From IMG/VR virus record IMGVR_UViG_3300042991_000236, positions 2,882 to 66,881 of that record: a stretch of DNA of 64,000 bases, one strand, 5' to 3'. The stretch comes from a virus. The number at the start of each line of letters is the position of its first letter. Within the stretch, counting starts at the first letter, position 1. A program made the position numbers and the translations under genes. This document shows positions 6,873-25,062 of the stretch, one piece after another. The notes under the pieces are model-generated. The model was not told where the DNA came from and searched no databases. It saw nothing but the letters and a program-made list of their open reading frames with translations.

Positions 6873-6893
6873 TAGGTCTACTAAGGAGTCTAT

Positions 6894-9800
6894 GTGGCTG
6901 ATTCATCTATGCTTATTAACTGGGGTGTACCAACAACAGGTAGCCCTTCTACTGCTCCTGCGCCTATTGCCAGCTTTGAATCTATCATGGGTAAAGACCC
7001 ACGATACTTAAATGCTGATGCTGCTGGTAAAGCTCGTATGGAGTTTGCCTATCAGCAGTTAGCTGAAGCTCAGGCTTTACAGGATCCGAACAATCCTCTT
7101 GTTGCAGAAGCTAAAGCTGCCCAAGCAGAAGCAGATAGCCAGGGTTTCTTGGCTAACATGTTTGATAAAACCATACGGTCTCACAAGCAAGCCTTTGATG
7201 TTGCTCCTCGAGTTGCCGATGCAATGAATCCTGATGGATCCGTAGCTACAGACTTTGGAGCCTGGAGTGCGAAGTACTTTCAGAAGCAACAAGCTGCTCC
7301 AAGAACATATGAAGATAAAAAGCTTGATGCTGATCTGACTCAGAGAATCAAAGCATGGAATGATGGTGGGCCAACAGAAAAGGTTCAGGCAGCCTTTGGG
7401 ATCCTCGGAGATATACTGACCAACCCTAAAGCTGCTATGTACGCTGGAGCCGATTCTGCTTCGTCTATTACTGCAATGTTGCTGGGTGCCAAGACAGGTG
7501 GATTAATTGGTGGTGCTGCAGCTGGACCCGTTGGTGCTACTGTTGGTACAGTTGTAGGTACGGTTGGAGCTTCTGCTTCTCACTCTGCAGCCCTCAAGTT
7601 TATGGAACTGGTTCAGAAAGGTCTTGATGAAGACAAGATCCCATATACTGCTTCCAACATTCAATCCTGGATGGAAAATAACACAGATAAAGTTCAAGAA
7701 TACCAGACCAAGTCTACCAAGTATGGCATGTCTATGGGCGTGGCTGATGCTGCCTTTGGCGCAGTTGGTGGTAAAGTAGCAACAACCTTCGAGAGAGCAG
7801 CGTTGCGACAAGCCAATGCTTCAGCATTGGCGCCAGTCGGAAAAGCTGCGATCTCTGAAATCGTACAAAAAACAGGATCAACAGTTGAGGATGCTACTCA
7901 AGCATATATCCAGTCTCAGGCTAGAAACACTTTAGCTACGCAAACATTCAAATCCAAGGTTGGCTATAAAGCAACTGGTCTGGGCACAGAGATTATCAGT
8001 GAGCCGGCCACAGAAGCTATCGGTACTCTGTCAGCTGGTGAAGAGCTCTCTGCTAAAGAATTGATTATGGAGGCTGTTGGTGGTGTAGGTGCAGGACCAT
8101 ATGGGGCTGCAGTCAATACATCTATCTTTGGTACCAAGATAGCCGGTGACCAGACAAAGGCGTTTGCCAAAAAATTATTGGCCAGTACGCCTGAGTCCCG
8201 GGCAGCCGAAAAAGAACAGAAAGCTGAGATTAAAGCAGCGACTCTCCAGAGACAGTCTCCGGCACACTTCCAGAGAGAAGTTGCAGCGACTGATCCAACA
8301 GATCCGAAAGTTGATATGTGGGCTGACCATACAAATAAAGAAACCTATGATCCAATCAAAGCAGTAACTGTCCTGGCTAAGACAGTGGATCCTGATTCAA
8401 CAGTTGTAGAGAAAGCTCGTGCCGTACAAAACACTTACCTAGATGAGCTAAATAAAGACTACGATAAGTACGACGAACTGCAGGCGCAATTCGATGCAGT
8501 TAAAGATAAAGATAAAGCAGCAGAAGTTAATCTCGAAAGTCAGCTAGTTAATCAAAGGGCTTTACTTAAAGAGAAACGTAGTGTGTACGACCAGGTAGCC
8601 GGCCAAGTTACTTTGATAAAGAATGCGGCTTTAGAGGTTGGTAAAGATAAACCAGTAGATACACCACTGGATAATCCGGCAACCATTAAACCAGATGATC
8701 TGACTGATCACATTACTCAATCGTTTGGATCTCGTGATACGACGCCCGATGAGCAGATCACAGAACTCCTGAAGAGATCAGATCTATCAGCTGAACACAA
8801 AACCATGTTACAGGATATGGCTGACTCCAACGCTATCCGAAAGGTTATTACTGATAGAGCTACTAGTGGTAAGTCTATGGATCAGGTCAGTGCTGATATT
8901 TATCATGGTCCTAAAGGCTCTAAGTTCAAAGGTATTGACTCTTATAAACAAGGTGTCAGAGAAGCTCTTACTTCTGGTAATACTGTGCAATTAACCAAAG
9001 AGCTTGAAGGGCTTAAAGCTTTCAGAGATGCTCATGTTACCAAGGATCAAAATGTTACTGAGATCCTGGCAGCAATGAAAAGCAAAGAAGGCTTATCTAA
9101 AGAACAATCAGCAACCTATCTTAAACTTCAGAGAGAAAATTCAAACTTTGAATTACATCCGATAACATCGGTTGGAATGGCAGGTAATATCAAACGAGAG
9201 GCTGCTGCTCTGAATGCTGAAGTAAAGCTTGCTGAGAGTCTCATAGCTGTCCATAAGACCAAAGGACAGGTGGTAGCCTCACCTACTCCGAGTTCACCCG
9301 TTGTGAGCGATTCTGCTTCGTCCAGTTTAGATATATCTAAATTATCTTTTCCTGAACTACAAAGTATGCACGTTGCAGCTACTGCAGCCATTAACGCAAG
9401 TGATAATTTAGATTCAAATATGGAGCAGTTGGCTATAAAAAAGCAGGTTACTGATGAATTAACTAGAAGAGGAGTTGATCTTAAAGGTAGGCCATTAGTC
9501 ACAACGAGTTCGGCCTCTACAGCCAATCCTGCTTCGTCCGAATCTTCTGTAAAATATGGATTTAAATTATCACAAGATAAACTTGGAAAAGACCAAGGTA
9601 AGGCTGATGTTGCTAATGCTTTTATCGGGTATGGTGCGCTGAATAGAAAGAGCTCAACCGGGCAATATGCGGCAGATGCTAAGTCTCAAAATATTCCTGT
9701 AAATGAGGCCATTACTCCTGATGCCACAACTCGTGCTTTTGTATCAGTATCTTCTGAGGGAATATATAATATACAAACCATAGAACAAGCGGGTCGCATA

Positions 9801-10784
9801 CTTGATGCTGGTGGCACTGTTATTATGGATGCCTCTGGAACCAATAAAGGACAGTCTCATTCTCCTTGGAATGCTAAAGGTGAGGGTGCAGTACAGGACG
9901 CTTTAATAGCTAAATATGGTGCGCCTAAGAAATCTAAGCAGGGCTACAATGTTTGGAGTAATGTTGCAAACAAAGGTGGTGATTCCAGTGGCCAAGAAGA
10001 AGGGCGGGGGCAAGAGGTGCTAAAACCTGCAGAGCCTGTTGTAGCTGCTAAGCCCGTTAATCGTCCACACTTAAAAGATGCCAAAGTTGTTAATGGTATT
10101 CACATAATCAATAATGATAAGAGAGCTACCAAGGAACCAGCTGGTAGCTATGCTGATGGAACTATATTCGTAAACCGCGGTCTAGCGATCGAGGTGTACA
10201 ATGAAAAGCGTAAGCAGGATAAGCCTCATATTGCTCAGGTTATGGGCACCTACGCCGAATTTGAAGCCTTCCTTATAGCTCACGAAAAACATCATGTAGC
10301 CAATAAGCATCATGACACTATGGAGAAACGTGCAGATGGCACTATTGATATTGATCATTTAAATAATAAAGCACTTGAAGCTGAGGCAAGTGTAGCTGCA
10401 TTGACTCCTGAGCAGAAGAAAAAATGGAAAGAGCTCAATACAGCTAAGCCTACTTCAGAATCTAAACCAGGTTACACCGGTGATATCGATACTGACATTG
10501 ACCTAGCAAATGCTGAGATGGACGATGATAGTAGTTCGTATTATAACGAGGAAGGTATTGAATTTGCTGAAGCTGGATCCAATGAAATAAATGAATCGAC
10601 TGATGAAGATTTCTCTGATAGTTTACCGGTTAATAATATACCGGCTGCGGATCCTATCACTGTGTCGTATACAGATAGTATGGGTAACCTGGTAAATGAT
10701 GTATCTTTTGACCAAGCAATGAAAGATCTTGAGACCGAGATCAATGAAGCAAAAGCTATCCTTACGTGTTTTGGTTCTAAATAA
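6894..10784 (+). CDS. Large virion protein, probable separated N-terminal (injection) domain of the virion RNA polymerase
   Basis: 1296 aa; directly follows the gp51-like gene where N4 vRNAP begins; Gly/Ala-rich hydrophobic segments; no polymerase motifs; HEKHH zincin-like motif; AAGGAG RBS before GTG. Confidence 0.6.
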   Translation: MADSSMLINWGVPTTGSPSTAPAPIASFESIMGKDPRYLNADAAGKARMEFAYQQLAEAQALQDPNNPLVAEAKAAQAEADSQGFLANMFDKTIRSHKQAFDVAPRVADAMNPDGSVATDFGAWSAKYFQKQQAAPRTYEDKKLDADLTQRIKAWNDGGPTEKVQAAFGILGDILTNPKAAMYAGADSASSITAMLLGAKTGGLIGGAAAGPVGATVGTVVGTVGASASHSAALKFMELVQKGLDEDKIPYTASNIQSWMENNTDKVQEYQTKSTKYGMSMGVADAAFGAVGGKVATTFERAALRQANASALAPVGKAAISEIVQKTGSTVEDATQAYIQSQARNTLATQTFKSKVGYKATGLGTEIISEPATEAIGTLSAGEELSAKELIMEAVGGVGAGPYGAAVNTSIFGTKIAGDQTKAFAKKLLASTPESRAAEKEQKAEIKAATLQRQSPAHFQREVAATDPTDPKVDMWADHTNKETYDPIKAVTVLAKTVDPDSTVVEKARAVQNTYLDELNKDYDKYDELQAQFDAVKDKDKAAEVNLESQLVNQRALLKEKRSVYDQVAGQVTLIKNAALEVGKDKPVDTPLDNPATIKPDDLTDHITQSFGSRDTTPDEQITELLKRSDLSAEHKTMLQDMADSNAIRKVITDRATSGKSMDQVSADIYHGPKGSKFKGIDSYKQGVREALTSGNTVQLTKELEGLKAFRDAHVTKDQNVTEILAAMKSKEGLSKEQSATYLKLQRENSNFELHPITSVGMAGNIKREAAALNAEVKLAESLIAVHKTKGQVVASPTPSSPVVSDSASSSLDISKLSFPELQSMHVAATAAINASDNLDSNMEQLAIKKQVTDELTRRGVDLKGRPLVTTSSASTANPASSESSVKYGFKLSQDKLGKDQGKADVANAFIGYGALNRKSSTGQYAADAKSQNIPVNEAITPDATTRAFVSVSSEGIYNIQTIEQAGRILDAGGTVIMDASGTNKGQSHSPWNAKGEGAVQDALIAKYGAPKKSKQGYNVWSNVANKGGDSSGQEEGRGQEVLKPAEPVVAAKPVNRPHLKDAKVVNGIHIINNDKRATKEPAGSYADGTIFVNRGLAIEVYNEKRKQDKPHIAQVMGTYAEFEAFLIAHEKHHVANKHHDTMEKRADGTIDIDHLNNKALEAEASVAALTPEQKKKWKELNTAKPTSESKPGYTGDIDTDIDLANAEMDDDSSSYYNEEGIEFAEAGSNEINESTDEDFSDSLPVNNIPAADPITVSYTDSMGNLVNDVSFDQAMKDLETEINEAKAILTCFGSK

Positions 10785-10807
10785 GATTTATTACATAGGA
10801 GTAAACT

Positions 10808-11212
10808 ATGCGATTACCTGGTGAAAATTATGATATTGGTTTTCCGATACCAAATAGTAAACCAGCAGCCTCAACTAAAGCTATTGAACAGGGGAGTACA
10901 TTTACACTCCCCTTTTCTGTGACCTGTAACGATGCTTTGCACCACATAGCTATGACTTACAACGGTTTGAACAATGGAGCCGCAGGGCTCCTTTTATACA
11001 TTGATGGGGTTTCTGTGGCAGGTACTGTAGCTCTTAATCAAACGCTTAGTGCTACTATAACTTCTACTGCAAATTTTCAAATAAGTGGTCGAGCCGGTGC
11101 CGATAGCCTTGCTGGTGGTCTTATTGACGACATCCAGATTTACAATTGTGCCTTACCCCCCTCGGATATCTTAAGAGTTATGGGAATGTTACATCCACTA
11201 TGCAGAGTGTAA
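10808..11212 (+). CDS. LamG/concanavalin-like beta-sandwich domain protein
   Basis: HHIAMTY..LYIDG..IDDIQIYN.AL pattern. Confidence 0.6.
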   Translation: MRLPGENYDIGFPIPNSKPAASTKAIEQGSTFTLPFSVTCNDALHHIAMTYNGLNNGAAGLLLYIDGVSVAGTVALNQTLSATITSTANFQISGRAGADSLAGGLIDDIQIYNCALPPSDILRVMGMLHPLCRV

Positions 11213-11233
11213 ATTTGTGCGGAGGTTATATTT

Positions 11234-11629
11234 ATGATATTCCAGTATGAAAAAACTGGGCACCCTAGATGGAAGTATAGGGTGCTCAACTTTTATGTGT
11301 ATGAAACTTCCTTTTATGTTTGCTGTCCTATAAGCAATACCTGGGTCTATTTAATTCCCAGACGCTTTCTTAAGTTAATAGAAAACTACCACTGGAATGG
11401 TTTAGATTTCTTTCCAGATATTGCATGGATGATGAGAGCAGGGGCGATACATGACGCCCTATGCCAGCTTGCTAATGAAGGATTGCTTTCTCGTAAAATT
11501 GCTGATAAAGAGTTCAGGAGAGTTTTGATTGAAGACTGTCCTGAAAAGCATAAAGACTTCTGGCTTACTGTAGTTGAAGCTATGTATCTTGCTGTACGGG
11601 CATATGCCATATTAAATCGTAAACACTAG
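11234..11629 (+). CDS. DUF1353-like phage protein
   Basis: WNG..AGAIHDALCQ..RKIADKEF..MYLAVR pattern; GGAGG RBS. Confidence 0.55.
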   Translation: MIFQYEKTGHPRWKYRVLNFYVYETSFYVCCPISNTWVYLIPRRFLKLIENYHWNGLDFFPDIAWMMRAGAIHDALCQLANEGLLSRKIADKEFRRVLIEDCPEKHKDFWLTVVEAMYLAVRAYAILNRKH

Positions 11630-11636
11630 GAGCTTT

Positions 11637-12173
11637 ATGAAATTACAGCGAGTTATACCAACGATCATATTGGTTCTATTTGTTCTCAGCTTCTCAGTCG
11701 TATATGGAGCCACACAAGAAAAGTCAGGTTTGGCTGATCACATTACTGATATCCAAGGAATTGGTATTTATATCGCCAAAGTTGTAGTAGCTTCCATAAC
11801 AGGAATGGCTACTGTTATTTGGTTTCTCAGTAATATTGTCTGGAAAAATTGGCAAAAGAAACAGACAGCCAGGTATGAGGAAATTGCTGGTGAAAAAGAT
11901 GTACTTCTTCAGACTCTATCTAAAGAAAATCAACAGCTTCTCAAAGGTCAAGACGCCCTCTTAGAAAATCAAATGATTCTTCGTAAATCAATAATACATA
12001 TACATCTGGATACTCGTAAAAAGTTTGAACGAGTCGTAGGTGTAATGGGTGAATGTAAATCTTGTTCTCAAGCTGTGGAAAACTACAATTATAAAGCAGA
12101 ACATAGACTGGTACTTGATAGTGAGAATGATCATTGGGACGTAAATAACATTCCTAAAATGGAGAAGCCATGA
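11637..12173 (+). CDS. Membrane protein of the lysis cassette (holin/antiholin candidate)
   Basis: Two hydrophobic segments then coiled coil; ATGA overlap with endolysin. Confidence 0.5.
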   Translation: MKLQRVIPTIILVLFVLSFSVVYGATQEKSGLADHITDIQGIGIYIAKVVVASITGMATVIWFLSNIVWKNWQKKQTARYEEIAGEKDVLLQTLSKENQQLLKGQDALLENQMILRKSIIHIHLDTRKKFERVVGVMGECKSCSQAVENYNYKAEHRLVLDSENDHWDVNNIPKMEKP

Positions 12174-12601
12174 CACCTCAAGGAATCATCGTTCATCACT
12201 CTTTAACCAAGGATGGAAAAGTTGTCGACTATGACGCTATCAAGCGTTACCACATGCGAGAGAAAGGTTGGTCTGATATTGGTTATCACTTTATTATTGA
12301 GCAGGTTGGTGATGAAGTAGTCACAATTGATGGCCGTCCATTACATATCTCAGGAGCTCACTGTATAGGCAAGAATAACTATGCCGGCATCTGTGTAGTG
12401 GGTAACTATGACATCGGTAAGGAAATCCTCTCAGACGAGAAAATGGAAGCTCTGGTGGCACTTACTGCAAACCTCATGATTATGTTTGATATCTCTATTG
12501 AAAAGATTAAACGTCACCATGACTACCATCCAAAGTCTTGCCCTGGTACAGGATTTCCTTGGGAAGAGTATCTCGATCTGGTTCGTGAAACTTGTGGGTA
12601 A
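12170..12601 (+). CDS. Endolysin, N-acetylmuramoyl-L-alanine amidase (T7 lysozyme/Amidase_2 type)
   Basis: IIVHHS, GWSDIGYHFII, GAHC.G.N, HHD..KSCPG motifs. Confidence 0.92.
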   Translation: MTPQGIIVHHSLTKDGKVVDYDAIKRYHMREKGWSDIGYHFIIEQVGDEVVTIDGRPLHISGAHCIGKNNYAGICVVGNYDIGKEILSDEKMEALVALTANLMIMFDISIEKIKRHHDYHPKSCPGTGFPWEEYLDLVRETCG

Positions 12602-12932
12602 GTTTGTCACTGAAATAGGATCCAGAACTCAAAGAGCTATTCTTGGTTTAGTGGGTAAGAAATTCGTAGCCTGGTATGCAGCTACTTATTTACTGGTTCA
12701 AAATTATATAAATGGCAGCGAGTGGGTAATGCTCACCGTTGCCGTATTCGCACTACAGATTGCACAGAACAGATTCGGAGGCGGATATGCCATGGATTCA
12801 GGTAGTAGATGGAATTTTGGGTCTACGTATAGTCAAATGGGGGCTGCTAATCCTGGCCGTCATACTAATCGTAATGGCCGGAATGCAGATGTTCAAGATC
12901 CAGATGCTCAAGGCGAAGGTGATGGTGATTGA
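12585..12932 (+). CDS. Putative holin (start uncertain)
   Basis: KKFVAWYAATYLL..SEWVMLTVAVF two-TM pattern between endolysin and spanins. Confidence 0.5.
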   Translation: MKLVGKFVTEIGSRTQRAILGLVGKKFVAWYAATYLLVQNYINGSEWVMLTVAVFALQIAQNRFGGGYAMDSGSRWNFGSTYSQMGAANPGRHTNRNGRNADVQDPDAQGEGDGD

Positions 12933-13164
12933 AGCTGAACGAGATTCAGCCAGGATCGCTATACAGATGCAGAACGAATCCGTGCAGGCGTGGAAAGATG
13001 ACGCTGATCGCTTTAAGGCAAAAGTGGGTGATAGCAAGAAAGCTGCTGATGAGGTGGCTAAAGAGGTCAGAAAGACTCTTGACGATCTCAGTAAACAACA
13101 TATCCCAACAGATTGCTCTGGTGCAGTTGCAGTTGCCAGAAAGTTCATGGCGGTGCCCCAATGA
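12787..13164 (+). CDS. i-spanin (Rz-like)
   Basis: GGAGG RBS; N-terminal TM helix, coiled coil, C-terminal Cys; adjacent to a lipoprotein gene. Confidence 0.7.
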   Translation: MPWIQVVDGILGLRIVKWGLLILAVILIVMAGMQMFKIQMLKAKVMVIEAERDSARIAIQMQNESVQAWKDDADRFKAKVGDSKKAADEVAKEVRKTLDDLSKQHIPTDCSGAVAVARKFMAVPQ

Positions 13165-13409
13165 AAATCATACTGATAACAGCCATTCTTCTATTGACCT
13201 CGGGTTGCTGCAGCCTCTTCTGCAAACCAATCTATATCCCAATCCCTGTTCCTCCTGTCAAAGTCAAACTCGAACCCAATGTCCCATGTGATCTGACAAA
13301 TGATCAGACTTCAGATTCAGAAGTTGTACGGGCCATGCTTAAATGCATAGCTATGAAAAATGGATATATCAAGGATATGAAAACTCGACTGGGAGATTAT
13401 ATTCAATGA
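13161..13409 (+). CDS. o-spanin (Rz1-like lipoprotein)
   Basis: Signal peptide with lipobox LTSG-C; Pro-rich segment; ATGA overlap. Confidence 0.7.
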   Translation: MKIILITAILLLTSGCCSLFCKPIYIPIPVPPVKVKLEPNVPCDLTNDQTSDSEVVRAMLKCIAMKNGYIKDMKTRLGDYIQ

Positions 13410-13549
13410 GAGGTGGTAAAAATTGTGATCCTTGGCTTAACGGAAAATGTAACACCACATCCTGTAAATTCTGGGATCATTGTACTTTGATGAATGATAA
13501 TGCTTTACCACCAGGAACAAATCCGAAAGATTATCAAGGTGATGATTAA
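13406..13549 (+). CDS. Small Cys-containing hypothetical protein
   Basis: ATGA overlap with o-spanin; GGGAG RBS. Confidence 0.35.
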   Translation: MRGGKNCDPWLNGKCNTTSCKFWDHCTLMNDNALPPGTNPKDYQGDD

Positions 13550-13632
13550 GCTATGGCTATAAATCAATAAATATTGTAATAGAATGGGGACAGTTATTTG
13601 TCTCCATTTTTGTAAGTATCCAAGGGGAACCT

Positions 13633-16600
13633 ATGTCAAAACTCACCAGCTGTATTATGCAGCAGAGTCTGCAAGCACAAGAGCGTATACCTAAAGAAGT
13701 CAAAATCTGGGCTTCTAAAGAAAAAATGAAAGAAGCCTCTGAAGCTCTGGAAATACATATACAAAAACTAGAGACTATTAAAAAGAGTGTTCAAGACCAA
13801 TACGCTGATAAGCAAGACGCTTATAAAACACAGCCTGTTGAAAATTCTCTAGCGGCTTCCTATGTTAATCGAGCAGAAACAGATCCCACCAATGAACTGA
13901 ATACGTTTAAAGTAAAACCTACCTTCTGGCAGAATCAGGTTCAGCGGTTCAGAAGTATGACTGCTGCAATCGCTCATATATTCTCTCGTGATGTAGTTAC
14001 GGATGGAGAGAAAGCTGTACTGAACCACTTTATGGAAAAAGGTGGATTTGGTGCAAAGATGAATGTAGCCATTAGAGATATATTCAAGATGAAAGGTATG
14101 GAGGCAGCAGGAAAAGCAAGTAGTTTTAAGTATCGTTACATGGATATGCTTCAGTATCTACCCGGGCACCCAGCTACCTTTAATAAGAAGGCTGATAGGG
14201 ATGCTGCGACAGAGAAGCTACAAAAAGAAGGTTATCTTGATTCAGCAACCAGGAACGCTATAGCCGCCACAGTCTATGAGTGGGTCGCCACTGATGGTAG
14301 GAGAAGCATAAGTCAAACGGAGCAGTCCTTGGGGCGTTTACTGAGCTTAGAAAAGGATGAGTCATTACCACGAAATGCATTTGAACTTTTAGAAGATGCA
14401 GGTACTCATGCTGAGACAGTAGCCAAGCAGATGGGTAGAACAATACTTCAGCGTATGAGCATTGCAGCCGGCCCTAAATCTGATTCTCTAGCACAGGCAA
14501 GGATGGAGTTATCTCTTGGTTACCTGGCTCTGGCTGCCATGGAAGAGATAGGTTTAATTGAACGACAGTCGATTATTGCTGACCATACAATAGATGCTAA
14601 AGCTGGTATGAATAAGAAACAATTAGCAGCCAATCCTATTGGTATTGAGGCTTTAAAAAATGGTCACAATCTTACGAAAGAAAAACTTTTTTATAAGAAG
14701 GATGGTAGTAGGCCAGATCCAAAAGGATTGCTACTGATCAAAACAATAAGAGTTATTGATACTAAAACGCTCAAGGGTATTGAAAGTGTTTTTATGGATG
14801 GGCGCCAAGCTTTTGATAAGCTCTTTGCTAATGAGCCACAAGAATTTGGTGTTCGTTGGGTAGCTAAAAAAGTTAAGTCTTTCCGGATCGGGCGATCCAA
14901 TGTTAATTCCAATACCGAGCAAACTAATAATCTAAATAATTATAACAGCATACCGTATCAGCGTAATGATGGCGCTATTGGTTTTCTGAAGTCAATGTGG
15001 AATCTAATTGATAGCCAGAAATCTGATGAAGAAAAAGATGCAATGACATCTGTATTTCAAGAGATGTTCGGGGCGCCTGCAGCTGACAATTTATTAGACC
15101 TCCACAAGAAAAGTAATGAAGGTATACGAAGAGGTATCACGCAAGATTTTCAGGACATACTTGATTTTGAAATCGAGCGTGAACGAACAGGCAATAATGA
15201 GTTTTACCCAGCATCAGACTTTATGGTTCAGATGCGTATGATCATGCGTGGAGAGATCAATCCGCAGAATAAGAAAATGCATCGAGCTACATTTGCTCCT
15301 ACTGGATTCCAGACAACTTTTAAGAAAGATCCAAAAGGTAAACTAGACCAAGCATTCCTTGAAGCTGTAGCAGTCGCATTTGACCTTGAGACGGGCAAAG
15401 GACTTCTAGGTGATGCTGATGCTCAGGTTGCTGCATTGATGGACATCCTGAGCAATCCTGAGAATAAAAAATATGAAGCTGTATCTAAAGCAATCACAGC
15501 TATTCAAAAATATAACGTCAATGGCGAGATGACCGGAGCAATGTTGCAAGACATTGCGAACGGATCATCGGCCATTGACAATAAAGTAACAGGGCTTAAA
15601 GGTCTCTTCGAGTATGCCAGGTATGCCTCAGTAAAATCGGGTGAAGAATTCACTACCGATATGCATGCTGAGATCGATGGTGTCAGCAATGGTATTATTA
15701 TTGGTATTATACAACTCCTTCCAGACAGTGCCGATAAACGTACTGTATTAGCTATGGCAGCTATGGGTGGGGTCAGTACAAGTGCATTTAAAGAAAGTTT
15801 AAATAAGCTTTTAATCAAGAATAACTTGCATGATGCCTATCAGCGCATGGCTAAAGAGTGGGCACTAAATATTGCCAACTTTAAGCATGACTGGGCTGTA
15901 TCAAAAGATAAACAAGAACAAGTCTTATTTAAACAAGCTATGGCATTAGGTGGAATACTTGGAGAGTTCCAGGATAAAGAAGGGGTTATAAATAATATAA
16001 TTCGTAAGTTGTCCAAACCAAGAACTATGCAGATAGTCTTTGGTGCTGCTACGAAAGGGCAAATTAAATTATTCATGAGTGAGAGTGTTTTACATGATGG
16101 AATATATAAAAAAGTTGAAAAGATTATTGAAAGGGTACGTAAAGTAGATAAGGCAAATCCAGACCCACTATTAAGAGGGGACTTTACAAAGTTGATGGCT
16201 GATGTTGCACTCCTCACAGGTAACAAATCTTTCACGTTAGAAAAATATTTTGCTGTCAACAGCAAAGCAATTATCCTCAAAAACCTGCAAGCCTTCAAGC
16301 TGGAACAGACAGATATCAATGCCCTGACTGAGGCAGTAGAGGCTACTTATGGCAAGGCTATGGAGGGCGCAATTGATACTATCTACGGAGCTTTAATTGA
16401 AGCACGTAAACCTTTAAATGCTGTGGTTCAGTTAGCTGTAACTACCTACAACACTATTCTTAAAAAGTTGGTGGATATTAAAATTCAACAGCAAACTGAT
16501 GACCTGGTTGTTATGAAAGCCCGAGTAGATGAGCTATCTAAACAGCTATACGATCCTACCTTTACTGGTGACAAAGAAGACATTTCCTCACGCCTGGCTC

Positions 16601-19600
16601 AGTACAAAGAAGACATGCAATTCAAAGAAGATCCTACCGTAATTACTAAAGAGGATCTGGCTGACATACTTAAATCTATTGAACATCTTATTCCTAAAAT
16701 AAAGACGCCTATTCATAAGGCTGGTAAAGGTAACGAGAGTTATTTGCCATTGGCAACTGTCGGCAAAAATAGAGCTTACAATAAACAAGCTGAAGTTGAA
16801 CAAGAATACAACGGCAAACTATCAAAATATGTAGGTCATGCTGAAGGTATTCCATATCTGGAAAACTCTGGTGTAGCCCCAGTTATTACTGCCATTCATA
16901 TGATGGATTCTATGGTGGCTAATGGGTTGATGAAACAGAATACTCATTTCTTAAATAACCATGATGGTTTCTCACATGGAATAGGAGACAGTCAAATAAT
17001 AGCTGATGCAGCCAATACCATATTTGGTCAGATAATGACTGATTACAGTATTGCACAGGCGTTTGCTGACATGCATGAAGAGTTAGCAGCAAAAAGTAAC
17101 GAGATGATGAAAGCTCTGGAAGTAACTTCAGATGAACTCCTTTATGGCACCAAAATAGATCCAAAGTCGGGACTGATGACTGGTGGTTTAATTAACGACA
17201 ACGTCATAACATATGAGCTATTGAAGACTGCTCAAATAGTAACTGATAAGCAAAGAAAGGAATTCATTGGAGAAGACTTTTTAGGGGGGGCAGAATATAA
17301 AAAAGCTTTAGAAGAGTTTATGACTTTTGTTACTGAGTCTCTAGGAGATAGTGATGTAGATCAAATATTGGCTGCCCTTACAAAGAATATAAATAGTATG
17401 GCAGAACAGACTGCTAGAAATAAAAAAGAAATTACTGACGCTGTGACTCACTGGGGTAATTACCCGTATCATGGACTGGGTGTAGATGTCACACCTACAA
17501 ACACATCTGGTAAAGTATTTGGTGACATAGATACAAATACGGTTCTGTTCAATGATGAGACTATAAATGAAGTTGATAGATTAACTTTAAAAGAAAGAAT
17601 GGAACAAGGCCATGGTTCCAGTGATACAGATGTATCCATAAACAAGGATGACTACGATCCTGTCCAGATTATTGATCGGAAAAATGTATTAGAAGTCTTG
17701 GATGCAATTGTTGATGTTGATAAAGGATCTCCTCATATCAGTGTTCAAGATTCACCATCACATCTGAGCCATCTGAAGAAAATCCTCAGCTCTCTCGTGG
17801 CACCGGTGATGACTCAGGTTGAACTATTCATGGGTGAGCATAAGATAAACAATGAGACCCAGGGTATGTGGTCAGTCTCAGCTGATGGATCCAAAAAGAT
17901 ATGGATTCAAACTCAGCAGCGATCGACACTTCCCCCATCCGGTATGCTCAGCCATGGCATTCGTATGTCGACAGCTGAAGTTTATGTTCATGAGTTGGTT
18001 CATCATATTACCACTTCTGGATTAAAGAATTATCCTCATTTGCAAAGACAAGCAGAAGCTCTTCGTGAGCTGGCATATTCTGAGTTCAGCAAGATGTATG
18101 GTCAAGAAGCATACCGAGTATTCATGAGCGACCCGAATGCCGACCTGACGGATCCTGCAAACGAATATGAGATAAAAGCAGCCAAGGCCAGATGGAAATA
18201 CGTATTCAATTCAAAACGTAATCCAGATGGCAGCAATAATGGTGTACCTGAGTTTATCTCCCATGGCATAACCAACGAGAACTTCAAACGGGAACTGGCC
18301 AAGCTTACTGTTAGCCAGGAAATAATTGATGCCAGAAAATCCCTGCGAACAGTCTTCGGCCGAAATATGCAGGAGACAGTTGTTAATATTTTCACCTTGG
18401 TTACGAACTTTATTTATGAGCGATTCAATAAACAGCGTCACTCAGATAAAGTTGACCAGGAACTGGAAAACCTTGTACGAGCTATCTCATACACAGAGAG
18501 CAAGAATAAGACGATGTTGGCCCGGGCTGCTATAGCTCTGGAAGGAACACTTACAGCTATTGGTTTAACCATGGATGAAAAGATAGTTGGTAGGGCTAAG
18601 AAGATAATCAATAGCACAGCGGTTGGTAAAGCAGTAGAGGCAATAAAAGAATTTCCTGAATTAAACAATATGCTTTCTTATCAGATGAGGATTGCCCTCC
18701 ATTGGTATCATAGCCAGCAGCAAGGATTGATCCCCGCTGTATGGTCAGAGATGCAAGGGGTGACAGAAAGAGTCAAGCCTCTCCATGATATGATCAGAAT
18801 GGCTAAGTATGTCAGAGACCATGCAAAGAATGAAGCTGCAGCTACTATCCGGAAAGACTTGAAAGCTTTATTTAAAGAGCCTCTGGATACATTTACCAAA
18901 TCAGCCATCACAAAAGTGCTGCTTAAAACCGATGTCAGTTACCTGGTTGGTAAAGGCCTATCATCTCAAGTCATTACTGGTTATGTTTCCGATTCCTCTA
19001 AAAGAGAGGCTCGTATCAAAGAGATCCTTAAACAGATCAATCAGGATCCAAACCTTCAGCCATACGCACACTTCTTTGAGAATGCAGCTGATGACCTTGG
19101 TTACTTTATGATTAATAGTGTGCCCAAGAACTCAGTAGATGTACCTCTTATGAATGCCCATAATATTGTGGCAATAGCTGAGCGTACATATGACGCTGAA
19201 CACCAGATAAAATCGTATCCTAACGCTGTAGATCTGGTTGAGCAGTTGGCAACTCTGTACTCTCTCCGATACGTTAAAGGATCTGACAGAAATGCAGCAG
19301 TCAAAGTCATGACTGAAAACTGGTCAGCTATGGAAGATATCTTGAATCGGCATAATGCTTTAAAGGATCGTGCGTTCAAGGATACATTCTACGGTAATCC
19401 ATACGAGATGACCAAGGGCTATACGAAACAGATCCTCAACTCTAGGATACAGTTCGAGATGGCGCATGTTGCGGATCCAACAAATCCAAATGATCCTACT
19501 CGTAAAATGTACGAAGACGCCGGCTATTACATGCAGATTTCTCCTCTGAAGAGGGATCCAAAGGATCCAGTACAATCAGATATCTATCTGTTCAAATCTA

Positions 19601-21366
19601 CGCTGGGTACAGTTAATGACCTGCAGCCCGGGATTGCTTCATTTACTCAGAATATTGGTCGAGGTGCTGTAGCGTATGATATCCAAGGACAGCTGGGTAA
19701 CACAATCGATCCAGCTCAAGAAGCTGATAAGAATAATCAGATAGTTCTGGCCAGTGTGGAAGATAAAATTAAGGCAATGTTTAATCCAAGATCAGCCATG
19801 GATAAGGATAAATACAAGCACAGCAATAATCCGGAAAACTACATGGTACCGAAGTTTAATCATGTAGGTAAAATGACTGAGATGCGTTACATGATGAATG
19901 AGCATACCAAGGATACCGTCCTTGAGCAGTTTTCAGAATTCGATGCAGTACTGGCGGCCATGACCAGTCAGATAATTGATAAGGTAGTGGCACCCAAGAT
20001 AAACCAGGATCTGATTCTGGAGCTGAAGAGAATGGCAGATGATAAGGCCTTTGGTTTAAAAGCTCAGAGAGCTGCTTATGTAGAGATCTCTCCATGGTCG
20101 CCAGAAAAAAGATACAGAGATATCTATCATCAGCTTCCTCCCAAGGCTCGTCAGAATATTAAATCTGAGTGGGGTGAGGATAGGATGTGGGTGGCTCAGG
20201 ATGTAGTTGATCTGGCTTTTGGTCAACGTAAATACTCTCCAAGTGAGACCTTCGGTAAAACCAAACAGGAAAGAAACCTGTTTGAGAAGATATTGGTAGA
20301 AACGCTCAAATTAGCTCTAGGAACGACAAACTTTTTCAATGATACCCCGGCAGGGTCTATTGAGAATACGTCTGTCCAGGGCCGTGCTGTGCGTCGGGCT
20401 ACTGCAGTTTATTCAACTATGGCTCAATTAACCAAGATGGGTAAATCCAACATTGTTGTTAGGAACTTGCCAGTTATTGTAAATAATCATAGTAGTAATA
20501 TGATGTATCTCAAATCCAGAGGAATAACTTTGGATGAGATCTTCAGACTTAATAAAGAAGCAGCTCTTGATATTCTGCAATATCAGAAGGATAAGTCTGA
20601 ACTGGATTCCTGGATCAATAAAAGAGAACTGATAGCCAGAAAGCATTCAGTGCCTCAGGCTGAACGTAATGTCCAGATCACAAATATCAATCGTAAGATT
20701 GCGACTCTTGAGAATCAGTTGGCATTGAATAAGGTCACGGAATTGGTGAAAGCTGGAGCAGTCCCAGGTGTTGTAGATGATGTGGAAATGGGACATACCC
20801 AGTCACCACATACCTACGGCGTTGATAAATTTCTTGATGATACATTGAGTGTACTTCCGGATAAGCTTCAGAGAGCCGGCAAAGCGTTATTTATGACTAC
20901 AGATACTGAAGGCTTCAAGATGATGAACAACGCCGTTAAGCTTACTGACTTTACTGGTCGATATGTGTTATACCACCATTTGACTGGTAAGAAAGGAATG
21001 AGTAAGGATCAGGCCATCTCTGAAGTTATGGATAATTTTATAAACTTTGATCTACCTACCCATCGGATGATTGGTATGCTAAATGAGATTGGTCTGGTAA
21101 TGTTTTCCAAGTATCAGTTTCGAGTTCTCAAGCAGATAAAGAATGTATCGCTTGAGCATCCATTCTCTACGCTGGCTACCTACATCATTGGTAAAGCTAT
21201 GGGTGACAATAATATTATCAATTCAATTCCATTGGTTACTAAAGATGTATTTCAGTCACTGGCTAATCCATTCTTTACAGCAGCAGGCTCTTTATCTGAT
21301 ATCGTAACAGTGGATGGTGTACAACTTGCGGGCGGTGTAATGGCTGACGCAATTACTCCGAATTAA
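13633..21366 (+). CDS. Virion-encapsidated RNA polymerase (N4 vRNAP-like): catalytic and C-terminal domains
   Basis: 2577 aa; motif A EIDGVSNG, motif B RKLSKPRTMQIVFG, motif C NNHDG; HELVH zincin-like motif; C-terminal DF.GRY.LY.HL..F.NFD. Confidence 0.9.
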   Translation: MSKLTSCIMQQSLQAQERIPKEVKIWASKEKMKEASEALEIHIQKLETIKKSVQDQYADKQDAYKTQPVENSLAASYVNRAETDPTNELNTFKVKPTFWQNQVQRFRSMTAAIAHIFSRDVVTDGEKAVLNHFMEKGGFGAKMNVAIRDIFKMKGMEAAGKASSFKYRYMDMLQYLPGHPATFNKKADRDAATEKLQKEGYLDSATRNAIAATVYEWVATDGRRSISQTEQSLGRLLSLEKDESLPRNAFELLEDAGTHAETVAKQMGRTILQRMSIAAGPKSDSLAQARMELSLGYLALAAMEEIGLIERQSIIADHTIDAKAGMNKKQLAANPIGIEALKNGHNLTKEKLFYKKDGSRPDPKGLLLIKTIRVIDTKTLKGIESVFMDGRQAFDKLFANEPQEFGVRWVAKKVKSFRIGRSNVNSNTEQTNNLNNYNSIPYQRNDGAIGFLKSMWNLIDSQKSDEEKDAMTSVFQEMFGAPAADNLLDLHKKSNEGIRRGITQDFQDILDFEIERERTGNNEFYPASDFMVQMRMIMRGEINPQNKKMHRATFAPTGFQTTFKKDPKGKLDQAFLEAVAVAFDLETGKGLLGDADAQVAALMDILSNPENKKYEAVSKAITAIQKYNVNGEMTGAMLQDIANGSSAIDNKVTGLKGLFEYARYASVKSGEEFTTDMHAEIDGVSNGIIIGIIQLLPDSADKRTVLAMAAMGGVSTSAFKESLNKLLIKNNLHDAYQRMAKEWALNIANFKHDWAVSKDKQEQVLFKQAMALGGILGEFQDKEGVINNIIRKLSKPRTMQIVFGAATKGQIKLFMSESVLHDGIYKKVEKIIERVRKVDKANPDPLLRGDFTKLMADVALLTGNKSFTLEKYFAVNSKAIILKNLQAFKLEQTDINALTEAVEATYGKAMEGAIDTIYGALIEARKPLNAVVQLAVTTYNTILKKLVDIKIQQQTDDLVVMKARVDELSKQLYDPTFTGDKEDISSRLAQYKEDMQFKEDPTVITKEDLADILKSIEHLIPKIKTPIHKAGKGNESYLPLATVGKNRAYNKQAEVEQEYNGKLSKYVGHAEGIPYLENSGVAPVITAIHMMDSMVANGLMKQNTHFLNNHDGFSHGIGDSQIIADAANTIFGQIMTDYSIAQAFADMHEELAAKSNEMMKALEVTSDELLYGTKIDPKSGLMTGGLINDNVITYELLKTAQIVTDKQRKEFIGEDFLGGAEYKKALEEFMTFVTESLGDSDVDQILAALTKNINSMAEQTARNKKEITDAVTHWGNYPYHGLGVDVTPTNTSGKVFGDIDTNTVLFNDETINEVDRLTLKERMEQGHGSSDTDVSINKDDYDPVQIIDRKNVLEVLDAIVDVDKGSPHISVQDSPSHLSHLKKILSSLVAPVMTQVELFMGEHKINNETQGMWSVSADGSKKIWIQTQQRSTLPPSGMLSHGIRMSTAEVYVHELVHHITTSGLKNYPHLQRQAEALRELAYSEFSKMYGQEAYRVFMSDPNADLTDPANEYEIKAAKARWKYVFNSKRNPDGSNNGVPEFISHGITNENFKRELAKLTVSQEIIDARKSLRTVFGRNMQETVVNIFTLVTNFIYERFNKQRHSDKVDQELENLVRAISYTESKNKTMLARAAIALEGTLTAIGLTMDEKIVGRAKKIINSTAVGKAVEAIKEFPELNNMLSYQMRIALHWYHSQQQGLIPAVWSEMQGVTERVKPLHDMIRMAKYVRDHAKNEAAATIRKDLKALFKEPLDTFTKSAITKVLLKTDVSYLVGKGLSSQVITGYVSDSSKREARIKEILKQINQDPNLQPYAHFFENAADDLGYFMINSVPKNSVDVPLMNAHNIVAIAERTYDAEHQIKSYPNAVDLVEQLATLYSLRYVKGSDRNAAVKVMTENWSAMEDILNRHNALKDRAFKDTFYGNPYEMTKGYTKQILNSRIQFEMAHVADPTNPNDPTRKMYEDAGYYMQISPLKRDPKDPVQSDIYLFKSTLGTVNDLQPGIASFTQNIGRGAVAYDIQGQLGNTIDPAQEADKNNQIVLASVEDKIKAMFNPRSAMDKDKYKHSNNPENYMVPKFNHVGKMTEMRYMMNEHTKDTVLEQFSEFDAVLAAMTSQIIDKVVAPKINQDLILELKRMADDKAFGLKAQRAAYVEISPWSPEKRYRDIYHQLPPKARQNIKSEWGEDRMWVAQDVVDLAFGQRKYSPSETFGKTKQERNLFEKILVETLKLALGTTNFFNDTPAGSIENTSVQGRAVRRATAVYSTMAQLTKMGKSNIVVRNLPVIVNNHSSNMMYLKSRGITLDEIFRLNKEAALDILQYQKDKSELDSWINKRELIARKHSVPQAERNVQITNINRKIATLENQLALNKVTELVKAGAVPGVVDDVEMGHTQSPHTYGVDKFLDDTLSVLPDKLQRAGKALFMTTDTEGFKMMNNAVKLTDFTGRYVLYHHLTGKKGMSKDQAISEVMDNFINFDLPTHRMIGMLNEIGLVMFSKYQFRVLKQIKNVSLEHPFSTLATYIIGKAMGDNNIINSIPLVTKDVFQSLANPFFTAAGSLSDIVTVDGVQLAGGVMADAITPN

Positions 21367-21376: not shown

Positions 21377-24300
21377 ATGCCTGATAGAATAGTTGCCTTT
21401 CATTCAATGGTTTTCAGAAGGTCTTCTTATGTAATGACACCAGAAGATATTGAATGGCCTACTGGTGGCGTATATGAGTACCCAGTACCAGATAACGACT
21501 TCTGGACTCGCATACCTCTTCCAGGTGACGATCCTTTATATGTATCGATGCGTATCTTCACCAGTGATGGTTTGTTCCCTCAAGAGGATTTATGGAGTCC
21601 TCCTGTCTTATTTGTCAAGCATGGTGATAAAGGTGATACGGGTTCCAGTGGAGATGCTGGAGATGACGGTCTTCATGGATTAAATGGCGCGCCGGGTACA
21701 CCAGGTAACCCGGGTATTGACGGATCCAATGGTGTGGCTGGGGATGGTATTATATGGGCAGGTAATGCTTCTTCTCATCCAGCAAATGCTTACGAGAATG
21801 TGGCTTATTATAATACCACGGATAAGAAGAGTTATATCTATCATGATGGTGTCTGGTACCAAATGACTATTGATGGTACGGATGGTCAACAAGGAACTCA
21901 TAGTGCGATAGCAACTCTTTATAAGAAGAACACCAGCACTACAGTACCTCCTATCAGTTTCAGTGGAACTTTTACATATACCTTTGCTACAGCCCTATTA
22001 TCTGGTGGTACTTTAGAAGGTTGGACACAAACTCTTCCTGCTAGTAACCCGGGTGAGTATATATGGGCTAAGCAGGCTTCTGCTGTATCTGAATTTGCTA
22101 CAGACACTATTGAAGCTCAAGAGTTTTCTGGGGCTGTTGTAATTAGTGGTGTTGGTACTAATGGTGCAGCCGGCCTGGACGGAACCAGTGTTGTTTTTAA
22201 AGGGACAGTTGCTCTGATTGTAGATCTACCAACTACAGCCCCTGAAGGAGACCTCTACGTTGTTCTTGAAGATGGTAATGGTTATGTCAGTGATGGTGGA
22301 TCTCCAACCTCAGTATGGACTTCTGTAGGGGCAATTCAAGGTCCTCCAGGTGAACAAGGATGGTCAGTTCAGATTGTTTATCATGATGCTTCAGCAGCAG
22401 GAGCAGCTCCTACGTTACCCACTAATGCTGCAGGATCAGATAATGGTTGGTATGATGTTATAACTGCAGCAGCAAATTGGATGACTATTAAAGTTGACGA
22501 TGGCACAGGAACTGTATGGGGCGCAGCTAAAAAGGTAACCGGTGTAGATGGTCTTAATAGCGCAACTGTCAGTCTTTATCAAAAGAGTACAAATGGATCC
22601 ATACCTCCGGCATTACCCTCAGGTACATTCACTTATACATTTGCTACCAATCTACTATCCGGAGGTACTTTTAATTCTTGGGTACAATCAATACCTAGTA
22701 TGAATAAAGGTGAGTATCTTTGGACAATCCAGGCTACAGCCAGTTCTGCTACTGCCACTGATGCCATACCTTTTACAGAATTTTCTTCACCAGTCATCTC
22801 ATCAGCCAATGGTACTGATGGTTTATCAATCGTTTGGCATGGAGAAGCTGCAGCACCTGAACTAGCATGGGAAATAGCAAACCATACCTATAAAGATACC
22901 ACCAACGGTTGGGTGTATATCTATAATGGTAGCGCTTGGGAATTAATGGTTTTCGATGGAAGTGATGGTGCAGATGGCGCAGATGGCGCAGATGGCGCAC
23001 CAGGATTACCGGGAGCTGATGGAACAAATGGTGATTCTGTTGATATTGTCTTTGTAAGAAGTGCGACTACTCCTGGGATACCGACAGCTTCTGTTGGTGT
23101 ACCTTCAGCTCCTATACAATGGTATTCAACTGTAGCAGGAGCAAATACTGCCGGAGGATCCAATATACCCTTATGGAGTAGTGTTGGGTACAAACCACAA
23201 AGCACTGGTGATTACACCTGGGATGCTCCAATCCGAGTAGATGGAGATAAAGTTGCTGAAGTGACAGTATACACTCGAGGTGTTCCTTCAACGGTTCCTA
23301 CCGGAGGAACATATACGTTTGGTGCTGCTACTCCCTTAACGACATTACCTACTTCTACCGGAGCAACCTGGAGTCGTACGATTCCTACTGGTACTTTACC
23401 CGTGTATACCTCTCGAGCAGTTGTTTCAACAGTCTCTGGAAACACAGCAGCTGTACCAATCACCGGTTGGTCAACTGCAGTAATTATGGTAGAGAATGGG
23501 TCCATAGGAGCTACAGGCTTATCCGTATACATTACCTATAATGACGCATCAGCTTCCGGTTCAGCTCCTGCTTTACCTACTACCGTTGCCGGCACTAATA
23601 ACGGATGGCATACAGCAGCAACAGCAGCTTCAAACTGGATGTCCCAAAAGATAGATACCAATCCCGCTACCTCAGCAACCTGGGGAGCAGCTATTAAGAT
23701 CAAGGGTGTGGATGGAGCAACAGGGGCTACTGGAGCAACCGGATTAACCGGATCAAGTGTTTTAGTTGTGTATGCTGATGCCATAGCCCCAGCCACTCCA
23801 GCTAATAGTGCAGGAGTACCTTCAGGATGGTCTTCAATAATTCCGGGTACAGCGACATATGCTATATGGGAAACCACAGGTACAAGGGCCACTGGAGGGT
23901 CTGTATACGTTTGGACAACTCCTGTGATATCTACTGCAGGATGGAGAAAACCAGGACAGACAACAATTGATGGTAATAAGATATATACCGGTAACGCATA
24001 TGTGGATACTTTACAAATTAAAGGTAACGCCGTAACAATACCTTTAGCAGTGGAAACAACAACAAATTATACTGTGTATGTTGCGGGTGCTGGAATACCT
24101 GAACCAAATTGGATTGATGTTCCAAATGCTACTAAACAGTTGATAGTCCCAACTGGTCAAACATTTCCAATTATAATGCAATGTGCGTTTGAATTTGATT
24201 TAAACTATCCCACAGATGTAACTAGCATTTCTGGTATTCAATTTAGATTGGTATATTACAATACCGGTACGGCTGTTACTACACAAGTTGGTACTATACA

Positions 24301-24535: not shown

Positions 24536-25062
24536 GAGTAGTTATATATCGATTAAATGATGGAAGTATACTTAGGAATGTAACAGGACCTATTGATCAA
24601 ATTATTGATGAATGTCTAGAAGGCGAAGAGTATTATATAAATTGTCCTATAGGGACTACTCATATTATTAATAATGAACCTGTAACAATTATACCACCCC
24701 CACCTGAACCCATAGTACCAACTTTATTAGAAGTGAAAACTAAGAAATACTATGAGATGAAGACAGCAAGAGATATTGCTGAACTCCAAGGTTTCACTTA
24801 TTTAGGAAAAACTTTTGATAGCGACGTAAAGGCTATGAAGCGTATCACAACTGCAGTGCAAGCAGCTCAAGCTTATCCAGCATTTTCTGTTGAATGGGCA
24901 TGTTCAGATAATACGACCATCACTTTGGATGCTGCTCAAATGATTGCTATGCCAATATATATTGCTGCAACTGGTGATGCTATTCATACGAAATATAAAG
25001 GGCTTAAGGAGCAAATTGCAGCTGCTACTACAGTAGAGGAAGTTGAAGCTATTGTTTGGTAG
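24532..25062 (+). CDS. DUF4376-like tail fibre assembly protein
   Basis: FTYLGKTFDSD..W.CSDN..LDAAQM..IAAATTVEEVEAIVW; ATGA overlap with fibre gene. Confidence 0.75.
   Translation: MRVVIYRLNDGSILRNVTGPIDQIIDECLEGEEYYINCPIGTTHIINNEPVTIIPPPPEPIVPTLLEVKTKKYYEMKTARDIAELQGFTYLGKTFDSDVKAMKRITTAVQAAQAYPAFSVEWACSDNTTITLDAAQMIAMPIYIAATGDAIHTKYKGLKEQIAAATTVEEVEAIVW

Follow-up and report, generated by a model that had tools for sequence, protein, structure and literature searches.

A virion RNA polymerase encoded by two separated genes in an N4-like virus, with the only cysteine of each chain at the facing ends

The DNA analyzed here, hereafter the window, comprises 64,000 nucleotides (bases 2882-66881) of the 66,881-base virus record IMGVR_UViG_3300042991_000236, which is ~90% complete according to CheckV. 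It carries a counterpart of the virion RNA polymerase (vRNAP) of phage N4, and in place of one gene we found two open reading frames (ORFs) on the plus strand: ORF 6894-10784 (GTG start), encoding an N chain of 1296 amino acids (aa), and ORF 13633-21366 (ATG start), encoding a C chain of 2577 aa. The chains amount to 3873 aa combined, and ~2.85 kb separates their genes (Table 1). Both ORFs lie exactly where the original prediction, made from the sequence and its translated reading frames, had placed them, with the sizes and spacing it gave. The N-chain GTG has an AGGAG 7 nucleotides upstream and agrees with the relatives, which open with MAD or MAE at the aligned position; the C-chain ATG is preceded by AGGGGA 5 nucleotides upstream (both found by eye), which gives the 2577-aa ORF the ribosome-binding site of its own that had been claimed for it, and the claimed polymerase motifs were also found. 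The N4 order gp53-gp52-gp51-gp50 is mirrored by a phrog_2220 protein, a 206-aa protein, a 692-aa protein and then the N chain; as had been noticed, the 1296-aa ORF thus takes the vRNAP position after a gp51-type gene, gp52 and gp51 being assigned by position. N4-type vRNAP is recognized as one polypeptide of ~2800-3800 aa with zero cysteines, whereas here there are two ORFs, a layout kept in relatives, and one cysteine per chain, the remainder being cysteine-free as in the family.

Table 1. Features of the split vRNAP locus in the window, and the DNA between the two chains in related contigs
Feature	Position or extent	Strand	Basis
gp53-position virion protein, 769 aa	1830..4139	+	phrog_2220, E 1.3e-109
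gp52-position small protein, 206 aa, 0 Cys	4160..4780	+	position only; no PHROG match
gp51-position protein, 692 aa, 0 Cys	4794..6872	+	position only; no PHROG match
vRNAP N chain, 1296 aa: N-terminal domain (NTD) core, variable region, conserved tail	6894..10784	+	phrog_2206, BLASTP, alignment
NTD core, residues ~34-816, with Gly/Ala-rich hydrophobic stretch ~185-235 (by eye)	6993..9341	+	phrog_2206 141-834; BLASTP; conserved alignment block
N-chain variable region, residues 830-1215	9381..10538	+	not conserved in N-chain alignment
Conserved C-terminal tail, residues 1254-1296; only Cys is Cys1292 (codon 10767-10769)	10653..10781	+	invariant C1292 in N-chain alignment; predicted interface
LamG/ConA-like protein, 134 aa	10808..11212	+	PF13385 (Laminin_G_3), E 5.8e-12
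phrog_1158-like protein, 131 aa	11234..11629	+	phrog_1158 'tail assembly chaperone', E 4.3e-7
Membrane protein, holin candidate, 178 aa	11637..12173	+	hydrophobic segments by eye; adjoins endolysin 5' side
Endolysin, N-acetylmuramoyl-L-alanine amidase, 143 aa	12170..12601	+	PF01510 (Amidase_2), E 5.7e-13; phrog_822, E 1.8e-22
i-spanin (Rz-like), start set at internal Met; ORF 12739-13164	12787..13164	+	phrog_9841, E 1.3e-5; one transmembrane segment by eye
o-spanin candidate, lipoprotein with lipobox LTSGC	13161..13409	+	by eye; overlaps i-spanin ORF
vRNAP C chain, 2577 aa: head, polymerase, C-terminal domain (CTD)	13633..21366	+	phrog_2206, BLASTP, hidden Markov model (HMM)
Head, residues 1-64; only Cys is Cys7 (codon 13651-13653)	13633..13824	+	C7 nearly invariant in C-chain alignment; interface residues 3-64
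Polymerase motifs EIDGVSNG (15670-15693), RKLSKPRTMQIVFG (16003-16044), NNHDGF (16954-16971)	15670..16971	+	invariant columns, C-chain alignment
HELVHH, HExxH of CTD, residues 1453-1458	17989..18006	+	H1453, E1454, H1457, H1458 invariant in C-chain alignment
Tail-fibre gene (1052 aa) and small tail-fibre-type gene (176 aa), 3' of C chain	21377..25062	+	phrog_3904, E 5.1e-20; phrog_2837, E 4.1e-15
L003/L010 cargo	~7.2 kb		includes tail-fibre-like gene and amidase
L013 cargo	~6.6 kb		tail fibre, lysozyme-like gene, phrog_1158 gene
L014 cargo	~2.9 kb		tail fibre
L011 cargo	~1.75 kb		endolysin and holin
L027 cargo	~0.5 kb		one small gene

Residues 117-816 of the N chain matched positions 141-834, and only these, of the 3406 positions of the PHROG profile phrog_2206 (E 1.1e-19), and the C chain covered the rest of the profile up to position 3392 (E 5.6e-265). 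In BLASTP comparisons, N-chain residues 34-722 corresponded to residues 40-645 of the closest fused vRNAP (loci L008/L016, 3147 aa; E 9e-21), and C-chain residues 59-2561 corresponded to residues 795-3141 of the same protein, colinear with the N chain. The 1296-aa protein is thus homologous to vRNAP NTDs, so the lack of homology that would have refuted the original prediction does not apply, and the match of both chains to phrog_2206, together with the layout kept in relatives, supports the predicted reading of the pair as a two-chain vRNAP.

The C chain carries the sequences EIDGVSNG, RKLSKPRTMQIVFG and NNHDGF (residues 680-687, 791-804 and 1108-1113), which we take to be motifs A, B and C of T7 RNA polymerase. 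The first represents the ExDGxxxG of the T7-like single-subunit core, named as a vRNAP motif in PMC10654107, and is invariant across the C-chain alignment. The C-chain HMM matched N4 residues 1352-2107, and the match to solved N4 vRNAP structures in the PDB spanned N4 residues 3031-3453. Identity to the vRNAPs of described phages was 23-27% among the best matches listed. A Pfam scan of the C chain returned no family; the precomputed annotation of the collection lists PF21894 and PF21867. In ...PRTMQxxYG, residue F803 (window 16039-16041) is Phe in the window and in relatives P0015 and P0016 and Tyr in 10 of 13 clade members; the presumed equivalent Tyr of T7 RNA polymerase helps discriminate ribo- from deoxyribonucleotides. 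A conserved HExxH is also described for subdomain C1 of the N4 CTD (PMC13434306).

Ten stand-alone relatives of the N chain (790-1300 aa) and 12 of the C chain (2504-2666 aa, with a common start point) were found; nine weaker C-chain matches are fused proteins of 3308-3776 aa. Both chains are present on five other IMG/VR contigs (L003/L010, L011, L013, L014 and L027). Because these relatives share both break points but carry different cargo (Table 1), the gap between the chains is a variable slot, a hotspot for the exchange of tail-fibre/host-recognition and lysis genes. L003 and L010 are one IMG/VR contig (75,882 bases), on which the N-chain gene runs off the end and resumes at the start; since the gene continues in this way, the record is circularly permuted or terminally redundant. 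On L004, BLASTP showed no C-chain homology for the large ORF that comes next, and the C chain must lie past the contig end or be absent. A locus search with the single N-chain protein found nothing; an alignment query did find loci. The layout is not common in described phages, where its commonness had been named as a possible refutation: tblastn with the N chain matched nothing among 50,697 phage records, the best C-chain matches listed in phage records fall under single genes annotated as vRNAP, and megablast of positions 6000-22000 against phages gave only a 46-base chance-like match. As a qualification, one two-gene vRNAP, that of the AD45 phages described below, has been published.

Broken vRNAP genes do occur in databases, such as those with two frameshifts on contig L022 and with three ORFs in phage pSb-1, and the layout in the window could be read in the same way, as the product of misassembly or of a frameshift error, or as a pseudogene in decay. 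We consider the probability of this negligible. Intact genes totalling 0.5-7 kb lie between the chains on five other contigs, the N-chain tail and C-chain head are conserved as protein, and both ORFs are intact with ribosome-binding sites. Short contigs from two other sequencing runs match the window at ≥99%, one of them bridging the C-chain start (13498-13849); no listed contig of runs X2 and X3 covers 10546-11286, which bears neither way. A fourth run contains a relative with 90-95% identity, whose contigs part from the window right behind the stop codon of the N chain and again a short way ahead of the C-chain start. Misassembly, which the original prediction had named as a possible refutation, is excluded since five other contigs share the layout and the fourth-run relative diverges at both junctions.

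Split and fused forms were aligned to the C-chain profile with hmmalign, since global alignment with MAFFT misplaced the heads. Profile position 469 aligned with N4 gp50 residue 1352, and the C chain would accordingly begin around N4 residue 880-1000. In the 2026 structure paper on N4, gp50 is divided into the NTD (1-906) and the polymerase (1007-2101), joined by a low-complexity linker (907-1006), and the CTD, which follows a short linker (2102-2123); the NTD is membrane-binding and loosely tied to the remainder (PMC13434306). Given the overlap of 880-1000 with 907-1006, the alignment indicates that the cut is in or beside the flexible NTD-polymerase linker of N4. The hydrophobic stretch of the NTD core may be set beside the N4 membrane-spanning helices at 224-278 (PMC13434306). 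The N chain ends in a conserved tail of ~45 residues, and an HMM of this tail gave no significant match to fused vRNAPs; across 27 sequences the lowest E was 0.007, in a position that was not colinear.

The variable region between the NTD core and the tail gave only a sub-threshold NAD_binding_7 match in Pfam, a PDB match with E 0.93 and Atlas scores ≤0.78, and its single-sequence AF2 model had a predicted local confidence (pLDDT) of 37.5. An HExxH-like sequence, HEKHH, is found at N-chain residues 1130-1134 (window 10281-10295), within the variable region, which in the window is unique. In the aligned region of three relatives, P0008 (839-947), P0010 (961-1057) and P0013 (901-1038), we found a GGDEF (diguanylate cyclase) domain above the Pfam cut-off, and in P0009 one just under it; the GGDEF-like signature is kept in P0008 and degenerate in the other GGDEF-bearing relatives.

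The most informative feature of the two chains, absent from the original prediction, is their paired terminal cysteines. In vRNAP homologues of 191 viruses, cysteine makes up 0.00075% of residues versus 0.865% in the proteomes, a suppression ascribed to passage through the periplasm (PMC11445570). In the window, the mechanically called ORFs of ≥150 aa have 1.0% cysteine. All 11 N chains have one cysteine site (CC in two of them) 4-6 residues from the C-terminus and none elsewhere. Among the C chains, 12 of 13 have a single cysteine at residues 7-11 and none elsewhere, and the 13th (P0021) has it at residue 5 if read from an upstream ATG on contig L014. All nine fused matches have zero cysteines, as do N4 and VBP47; the closer fused relatives (L008/L016, L015 and L012) have 0, 1 or 2, all internal and none terminal. 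The flanking motifs, I-L-x-C near the N-chain end and L-x-x-C-I near the C-chain start, are kept as protein and do not represent out-of-frame noise. A split intein was considered and rejected: its N-intein would run for tens of residues from a Cys at the end of the first chain, and its C-intein would stop ahead of a Cys, Ser or Thr at the start of the second, but only 4 residues follow Cys1292 and only 6 precede Cys7, and no intein family was found in Pfam.

We predicted the complex of the facing ends, using C-chain residues 1-260 as the head and N-chain residues 1215-1296 as the tail, each with its own relatives' alignment. The score was 0.75 (0.74, 0.75 and 0.76 in separate runs) versus 0.02 for the best of three controls, which favours the association of the two chains for which a complex prediction had been suggested. 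Of 80 solved complexes, 58 attain such a score, as do 2 of 110 mismatched pairs; this calibration holds only roughly here, own alignments having been used. The runs shared at least 42% of contacts, with a partner pLDDT of at least 59. The N4 NTD and linker are unresolved in solved structures (PMC13434306), and for this reason the score is unlikely to reflect structures known to the predictor. The predicted interface consists mainly of two helices packed antiparallel, residues 36-57 of the head against 1290-1272 of the tail, and also holds head residues 3-12 and tail residues 1292-1296, hence both cysteine-bearing ends. Such a helix pair might suffice by itself, with the complex held non-covalently and the cysteines serving a shared metal site (a zinc clasp) or a modification, and many C chains do have C-I-x-x-H-G-x-K-x-H directly after the cysteine position. 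These histidines, however, are not conserved and are missing in the heads of the window, P0023, P0024 and P0025; the helix pair would separate if threaded unfolded through the ~35 Å channel (PMC13434306); and the constant near-terminal position of the cysteines, with its recurrence at the AD45 cut site, would be left unexplained. We therefore regard a purely non-covalent complex as unlikely.

The same pattern was found outside the window clade. In the L020 lineage (35% identical to P0164), the gene order is the same, a phrog_2220 family member also precedes the ejection genes, and two cargo genes lie between the chains. Its NTD chain (836 aa; phrog_2206, E 2.5e-17) has its sole cysteine at residue 835, its C chain at residue 6, and the penultimate cysteine is kept in eight of nine relatives of the NTD chain, the ninth of which looks truncated. 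The second cut site is that of Alteromonas phages vB_AmaP_AD45-P1 to P4, whose vRNAP is encoded in two adjacent ORFs with a PCR-verified stop codon (PMC3821669). Like the window, AD45 has a natural two-polypeptide vRNAP with the sole cysteines at facing termini: in AD45-P1 these are residue 2479 of the 2481-aa upstream chain and residue 4 of the 1409-aa downstream chain. Unlike the window, where the cut is before the polymerase, AD45 is cut between polymerase and CTD, and its genes are adjacent without cargo; the upstream chain comprises NTD and polymerase (aligning with VBP47 residues 1073-1909) and the downstream chain the CTD (2104-3182). If a ribosomal frameshift joined the AD45 frames, only the downstream cysteine would remain. 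AD45 counts as one event because only four near-identical AD45 phages are on record. Elsewhere in the AD45-P1 genome, a thioredoxin-domain protein is annotated (L018 2327-2572; record 72326-72571). A supposed third cut site, in P0057 (1707 aa, ending in CC), was rejected: on its IMG/VR contig, L022 (76,093 bases), two frameshifts ~150 bases apart at most disrupt the gene (15060-15300), three frames carry consecutive homologous pieces, and the CC is out of frame.

A search with C-chain residues 1-700 yielded 268 representatives, and we counted cysteines in the best 150 of them. A cysteine in the first 12 residues was present in 30 of the 46 proteins that start near the polymerase versus 2 of the 104 of fused type; one of these two is NTD-less by HMM offset and the other has a doubtful V start. 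No cysteine at all was found in 88 of the 104 fused-type proteins. The remaining 16 of the 46 comprise six fragments below 2000 aa, four proteins starting well inside the query, P0021 (miscalled start) and five that are cysteine-free. Phage pSb-1 served as a control: its vRNAP is spread over three ORFs, which PMC10654107 handles as calling errors, and none of them contains a cysteine. Both partners were verified only in the window clade and the L020 lineage. N chains were not seen for the P0076/P0089/P0061, P0053, P0055, P0114, P0122, P0085 and P0080 lineages; a locus search for P0076 found nothing, and a search with an alignment of the P0076 clade returned no close relative, only other vRNAP loci, including L027.

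The prediction had left open whether the two-gene state arose by fission or is a pre-fusion ancestral state. In a quick IQ-TREE analysis of 27 rows and 2118 columns, the 13 C chains of the window clade formed one group (SH-aLRT 100), sister to three fused forms (support 100; joint group 98), with the remaining fused forms outside. These sisters are the single-gene vRNAPs of uncultivated viruses that are the closest C-chain relatives (L008/L016, 3147 aa; L015, 3125 aa; L012, 3604 aa; 28-29% identity over ~2600 residues). In a 155-row FastTree and a 39-row IQ-TREE (998 columns), proteins that are NTD-less and have an N-terminal cysteine were scattered among fused forms; there are 9 changes of this label, and a minimum of 5 is imposed by well-supported branches. 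Forcing the 19 such rows together was 657.6 log-likelihood units worse (p-AU 4e-116), the constrained group having been set by sequence features, but after a first tree. Recombination could move a junction between lineages. Since the trees are unrooted, a two-gene ancestor from which single-chain vRNAPs arose by fusion can be accommodated in the first tree by a root on the split-clade stem. We consider it very unlikely: split forms occur in several places among fused, cysteine-free forms with at least 5 forced changes, a single clade of all split rows is rejected, and the deep nodes are fused whether rooted on N4 or judged by long branches. Because the deep nodes are fused with N4 as outgroup, we favour repeated fission over repeated fusion. 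The trees thus favour the fission half of the original alternative; the root itself was not inferred.

Taking these data together, we propose that the vRNAP of the window consists of two chains, which an interchain disulfide staples end to end until the reducing cytoplasm opens it, a reading to which we assign a probability of roughly 0.55. An ancestral single gene would have been cut in the flexible linker between the membrane-binding NTD and the polymerase. During assembly, the ~45-residue N-chain tail would dock on the first ~64 residues of the C chain, and Cys1292 and Cys7 would then form the disulfide, probably once the virion meets oxidizing surroundings. With each cysteine so close to the end that faces the other chain, at a distance of a few residues, the joined product would be an almost linear thread, able to pass N-end first through the narrow tail channel like N4 vRNAP, after which the reducing cytoplasm would open the bond and free the polymerase-CTD portion from the membrane-bound NTD. 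In AB-type toxins, a disulfide links two chains and is reduced once they arrive in the cytosol. The proposed logic is alike, a covalent link outside the cell and release by the reducing cytoplasm, with no homology implied; here the link would join two separately translated chains of a phage ejection protein end to end. Such a staple alone would account jointly for the presence of the cysteines, their number of one per chain and their position at facing termini at two cut sites.

Several observations weigh against this proposal. The disulfide, the co-packaging of the chains and the ejection of either are things we infer. In the predicted complex, Cys7-Cys1292 is not among the listed lowest-error pairs, and the prediction only places the cysteine-bearing segments in the interface, at a modest pLDDT of 51-61. 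The tail has no detectable counterpart in fused forms and so is not simply half of an old fold. The N-chain cysteine of L014 is the 11th residue from the end, outside the last 6. The L022 example means that terminal cysteines can be artefacts of broken genes, and five full-length-looking NTD-less representatives (P0099, P0104, P0112, P0135 and P0146) lack cysteine. Virion assembly takes place in a cytoplasm that is reducing, and neither thioredoxin nor DsbA is encoded in the record; a glutaredoxin-like match there was below cut-off and contained stops, and a search for Erv1 was uninformative. With no phage-encoded thiol oxidoreductase found in the record, oxidation would be spontaneous or host-dependent. 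The AD45 authors took cysteines as a sign of a non-injected protein (PMC3821669).

Some of the same observations fit a different arrangement, in which the chains are now independent, the N chain being a separate ejection protein or effector carrier and the polymerase-CTD chain packaged alone or, as put forward by the AD45 authors for their phages, not injected. In N4 the CTD reportedly suffices for encapsidation and the NTD serves injection (Kazmierczak 2002, quoted in PMC3821669), the N chains have variable inserts, including GGDEF, and the five cysteine-free NTD-less proteins agree with it. Yet the conserved tail and head motifs face each other, each holding the only cysteine of its chain, the complex prediction passes its controls, and the two genes are linked on every contig showing both, which makes independence of the chains quite unlikely in our view.

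Of the genes predicted to lie between the chains, the LamG, amidase and spanin genes were confirmed by family, and the DUF1353-like and holin labels found no confirmation in family searches. The putative lysis cassette has an Amidase_2 endolysin and an Rz-like spanin by family, a candidate o-spanin by a lipobox seen by eye and, as holin, only a candidate membrane protein. No Pfam match at E≤0.01 was obtained for 11234-11629, whose phrog_1158 family also occurs directly before the C chain in L013; 11637-12173 had no family match at E≤0.001, and the o-spanin candidate (13161-13409) matched no family. Between the spanins and the C chain, a 68-aa Cys-rich ORF (13343-13549; CDPW..C..C..C) likewise had no family match. 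A regulatory scan listed 11 promoter-like sites versus 16.2 expected, hence no enrichment, and 9 terminator-like sites versus 5.2 expected, a mild excess. By eye, a short GC-containing hairpin followed by a T run is visible at 13587-13612. It falls within the 83-base spacer that leads up to the ribosome-binding site of the C chain and is absent from the output of the consensus scan. Downstream of the tail-fibre genes, a thymidylate synthase gene (phrog_85, E 5.7e-56) adjoins an HNH endonuclease gene (phrog_1872, E 2.2e-32) on the minus strand (25214-26364), and this pair marks the switch from plus- to minus-strand genes.

Compared with gp50 of N4 and the vRNAPs of other Schitoviridae, the window enzyme is alike in the order of NTD, T7-like polymerase and HExxH-containing CTD, in its place after gp53/gp52/gp51-type genes and in the avoidance of cysteine. 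It is unlike N4 gp50, one 3500-aa chain with zero cysteines, in being encoded by two genes 2.85 kb apart, each chain having one cysteine at the facing end and a new segment there, a tail in one and a head in the other. The virion RNA polymerase of crAss-like phages consists of several packaged proteins and is a different, multisubunit-like enzyme whose relation to the N4 domains is described as open (PMC13434306); by description only, it resembles the enzyme proposed here, as a transcription machine that travels in the virion, is ejected and has more than one polypeptide. Two-gene vRNAPs have one published precedent, AD45, and the cut site, the cargo and the cysteine pair of the window have not been found in print: full-text literature searches, with subscription-only papers and supplements outside their reach, returned neither an NTD-polymerase cut with genes between nor a terminal cysteine pair or disulfide joining vRNAP chains.

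These findings bear on how N4-like phages are recognized and on how their polymerase enters the cell. In PMC10654107, 'separated' vRNAP ORFs were concatenated as errors and vRNAP matches below 2500 aa discarded; surveys in which a full-length vRNAP is the criterion for an N4-like phage, or in which 'broken' ORFs are concatenated in this way, can misread the split clade. How a protein of ~3500 residues passes a ~35 Å channel and becomes active inside the cell is an open question for N4-like phages (PMC13434306). Split vRNAPs are a natural experiment on this ejection, cut at a flexible linker more than once and holding, in a family that otherwise avoids cysteine, their only cysteines at the new ends. 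Tentatively, and at somewhat below even odds in our estimation, a redox-gated end-to-end disulfide may be a general means by which giant ejected proteins can be encoded in pieces; it may have evolved repeatedly at both N4-type linkers, with reduction as the release switch, from the membrane anchor at the NTD/polymerase cut and from an autoinhibitory CTD at the AD45-type cut, and the freed N chain may carry exchangeable injected domains such as GGDEF cyclases. If it is ejected, an N chain with exchangeable enzyme domains would be an injected effector carrier. If the ends are indeed joined by a disulfide, continuity of the chain would be required for ejection, and the reducing cytoplasm would provide a built-in release step.

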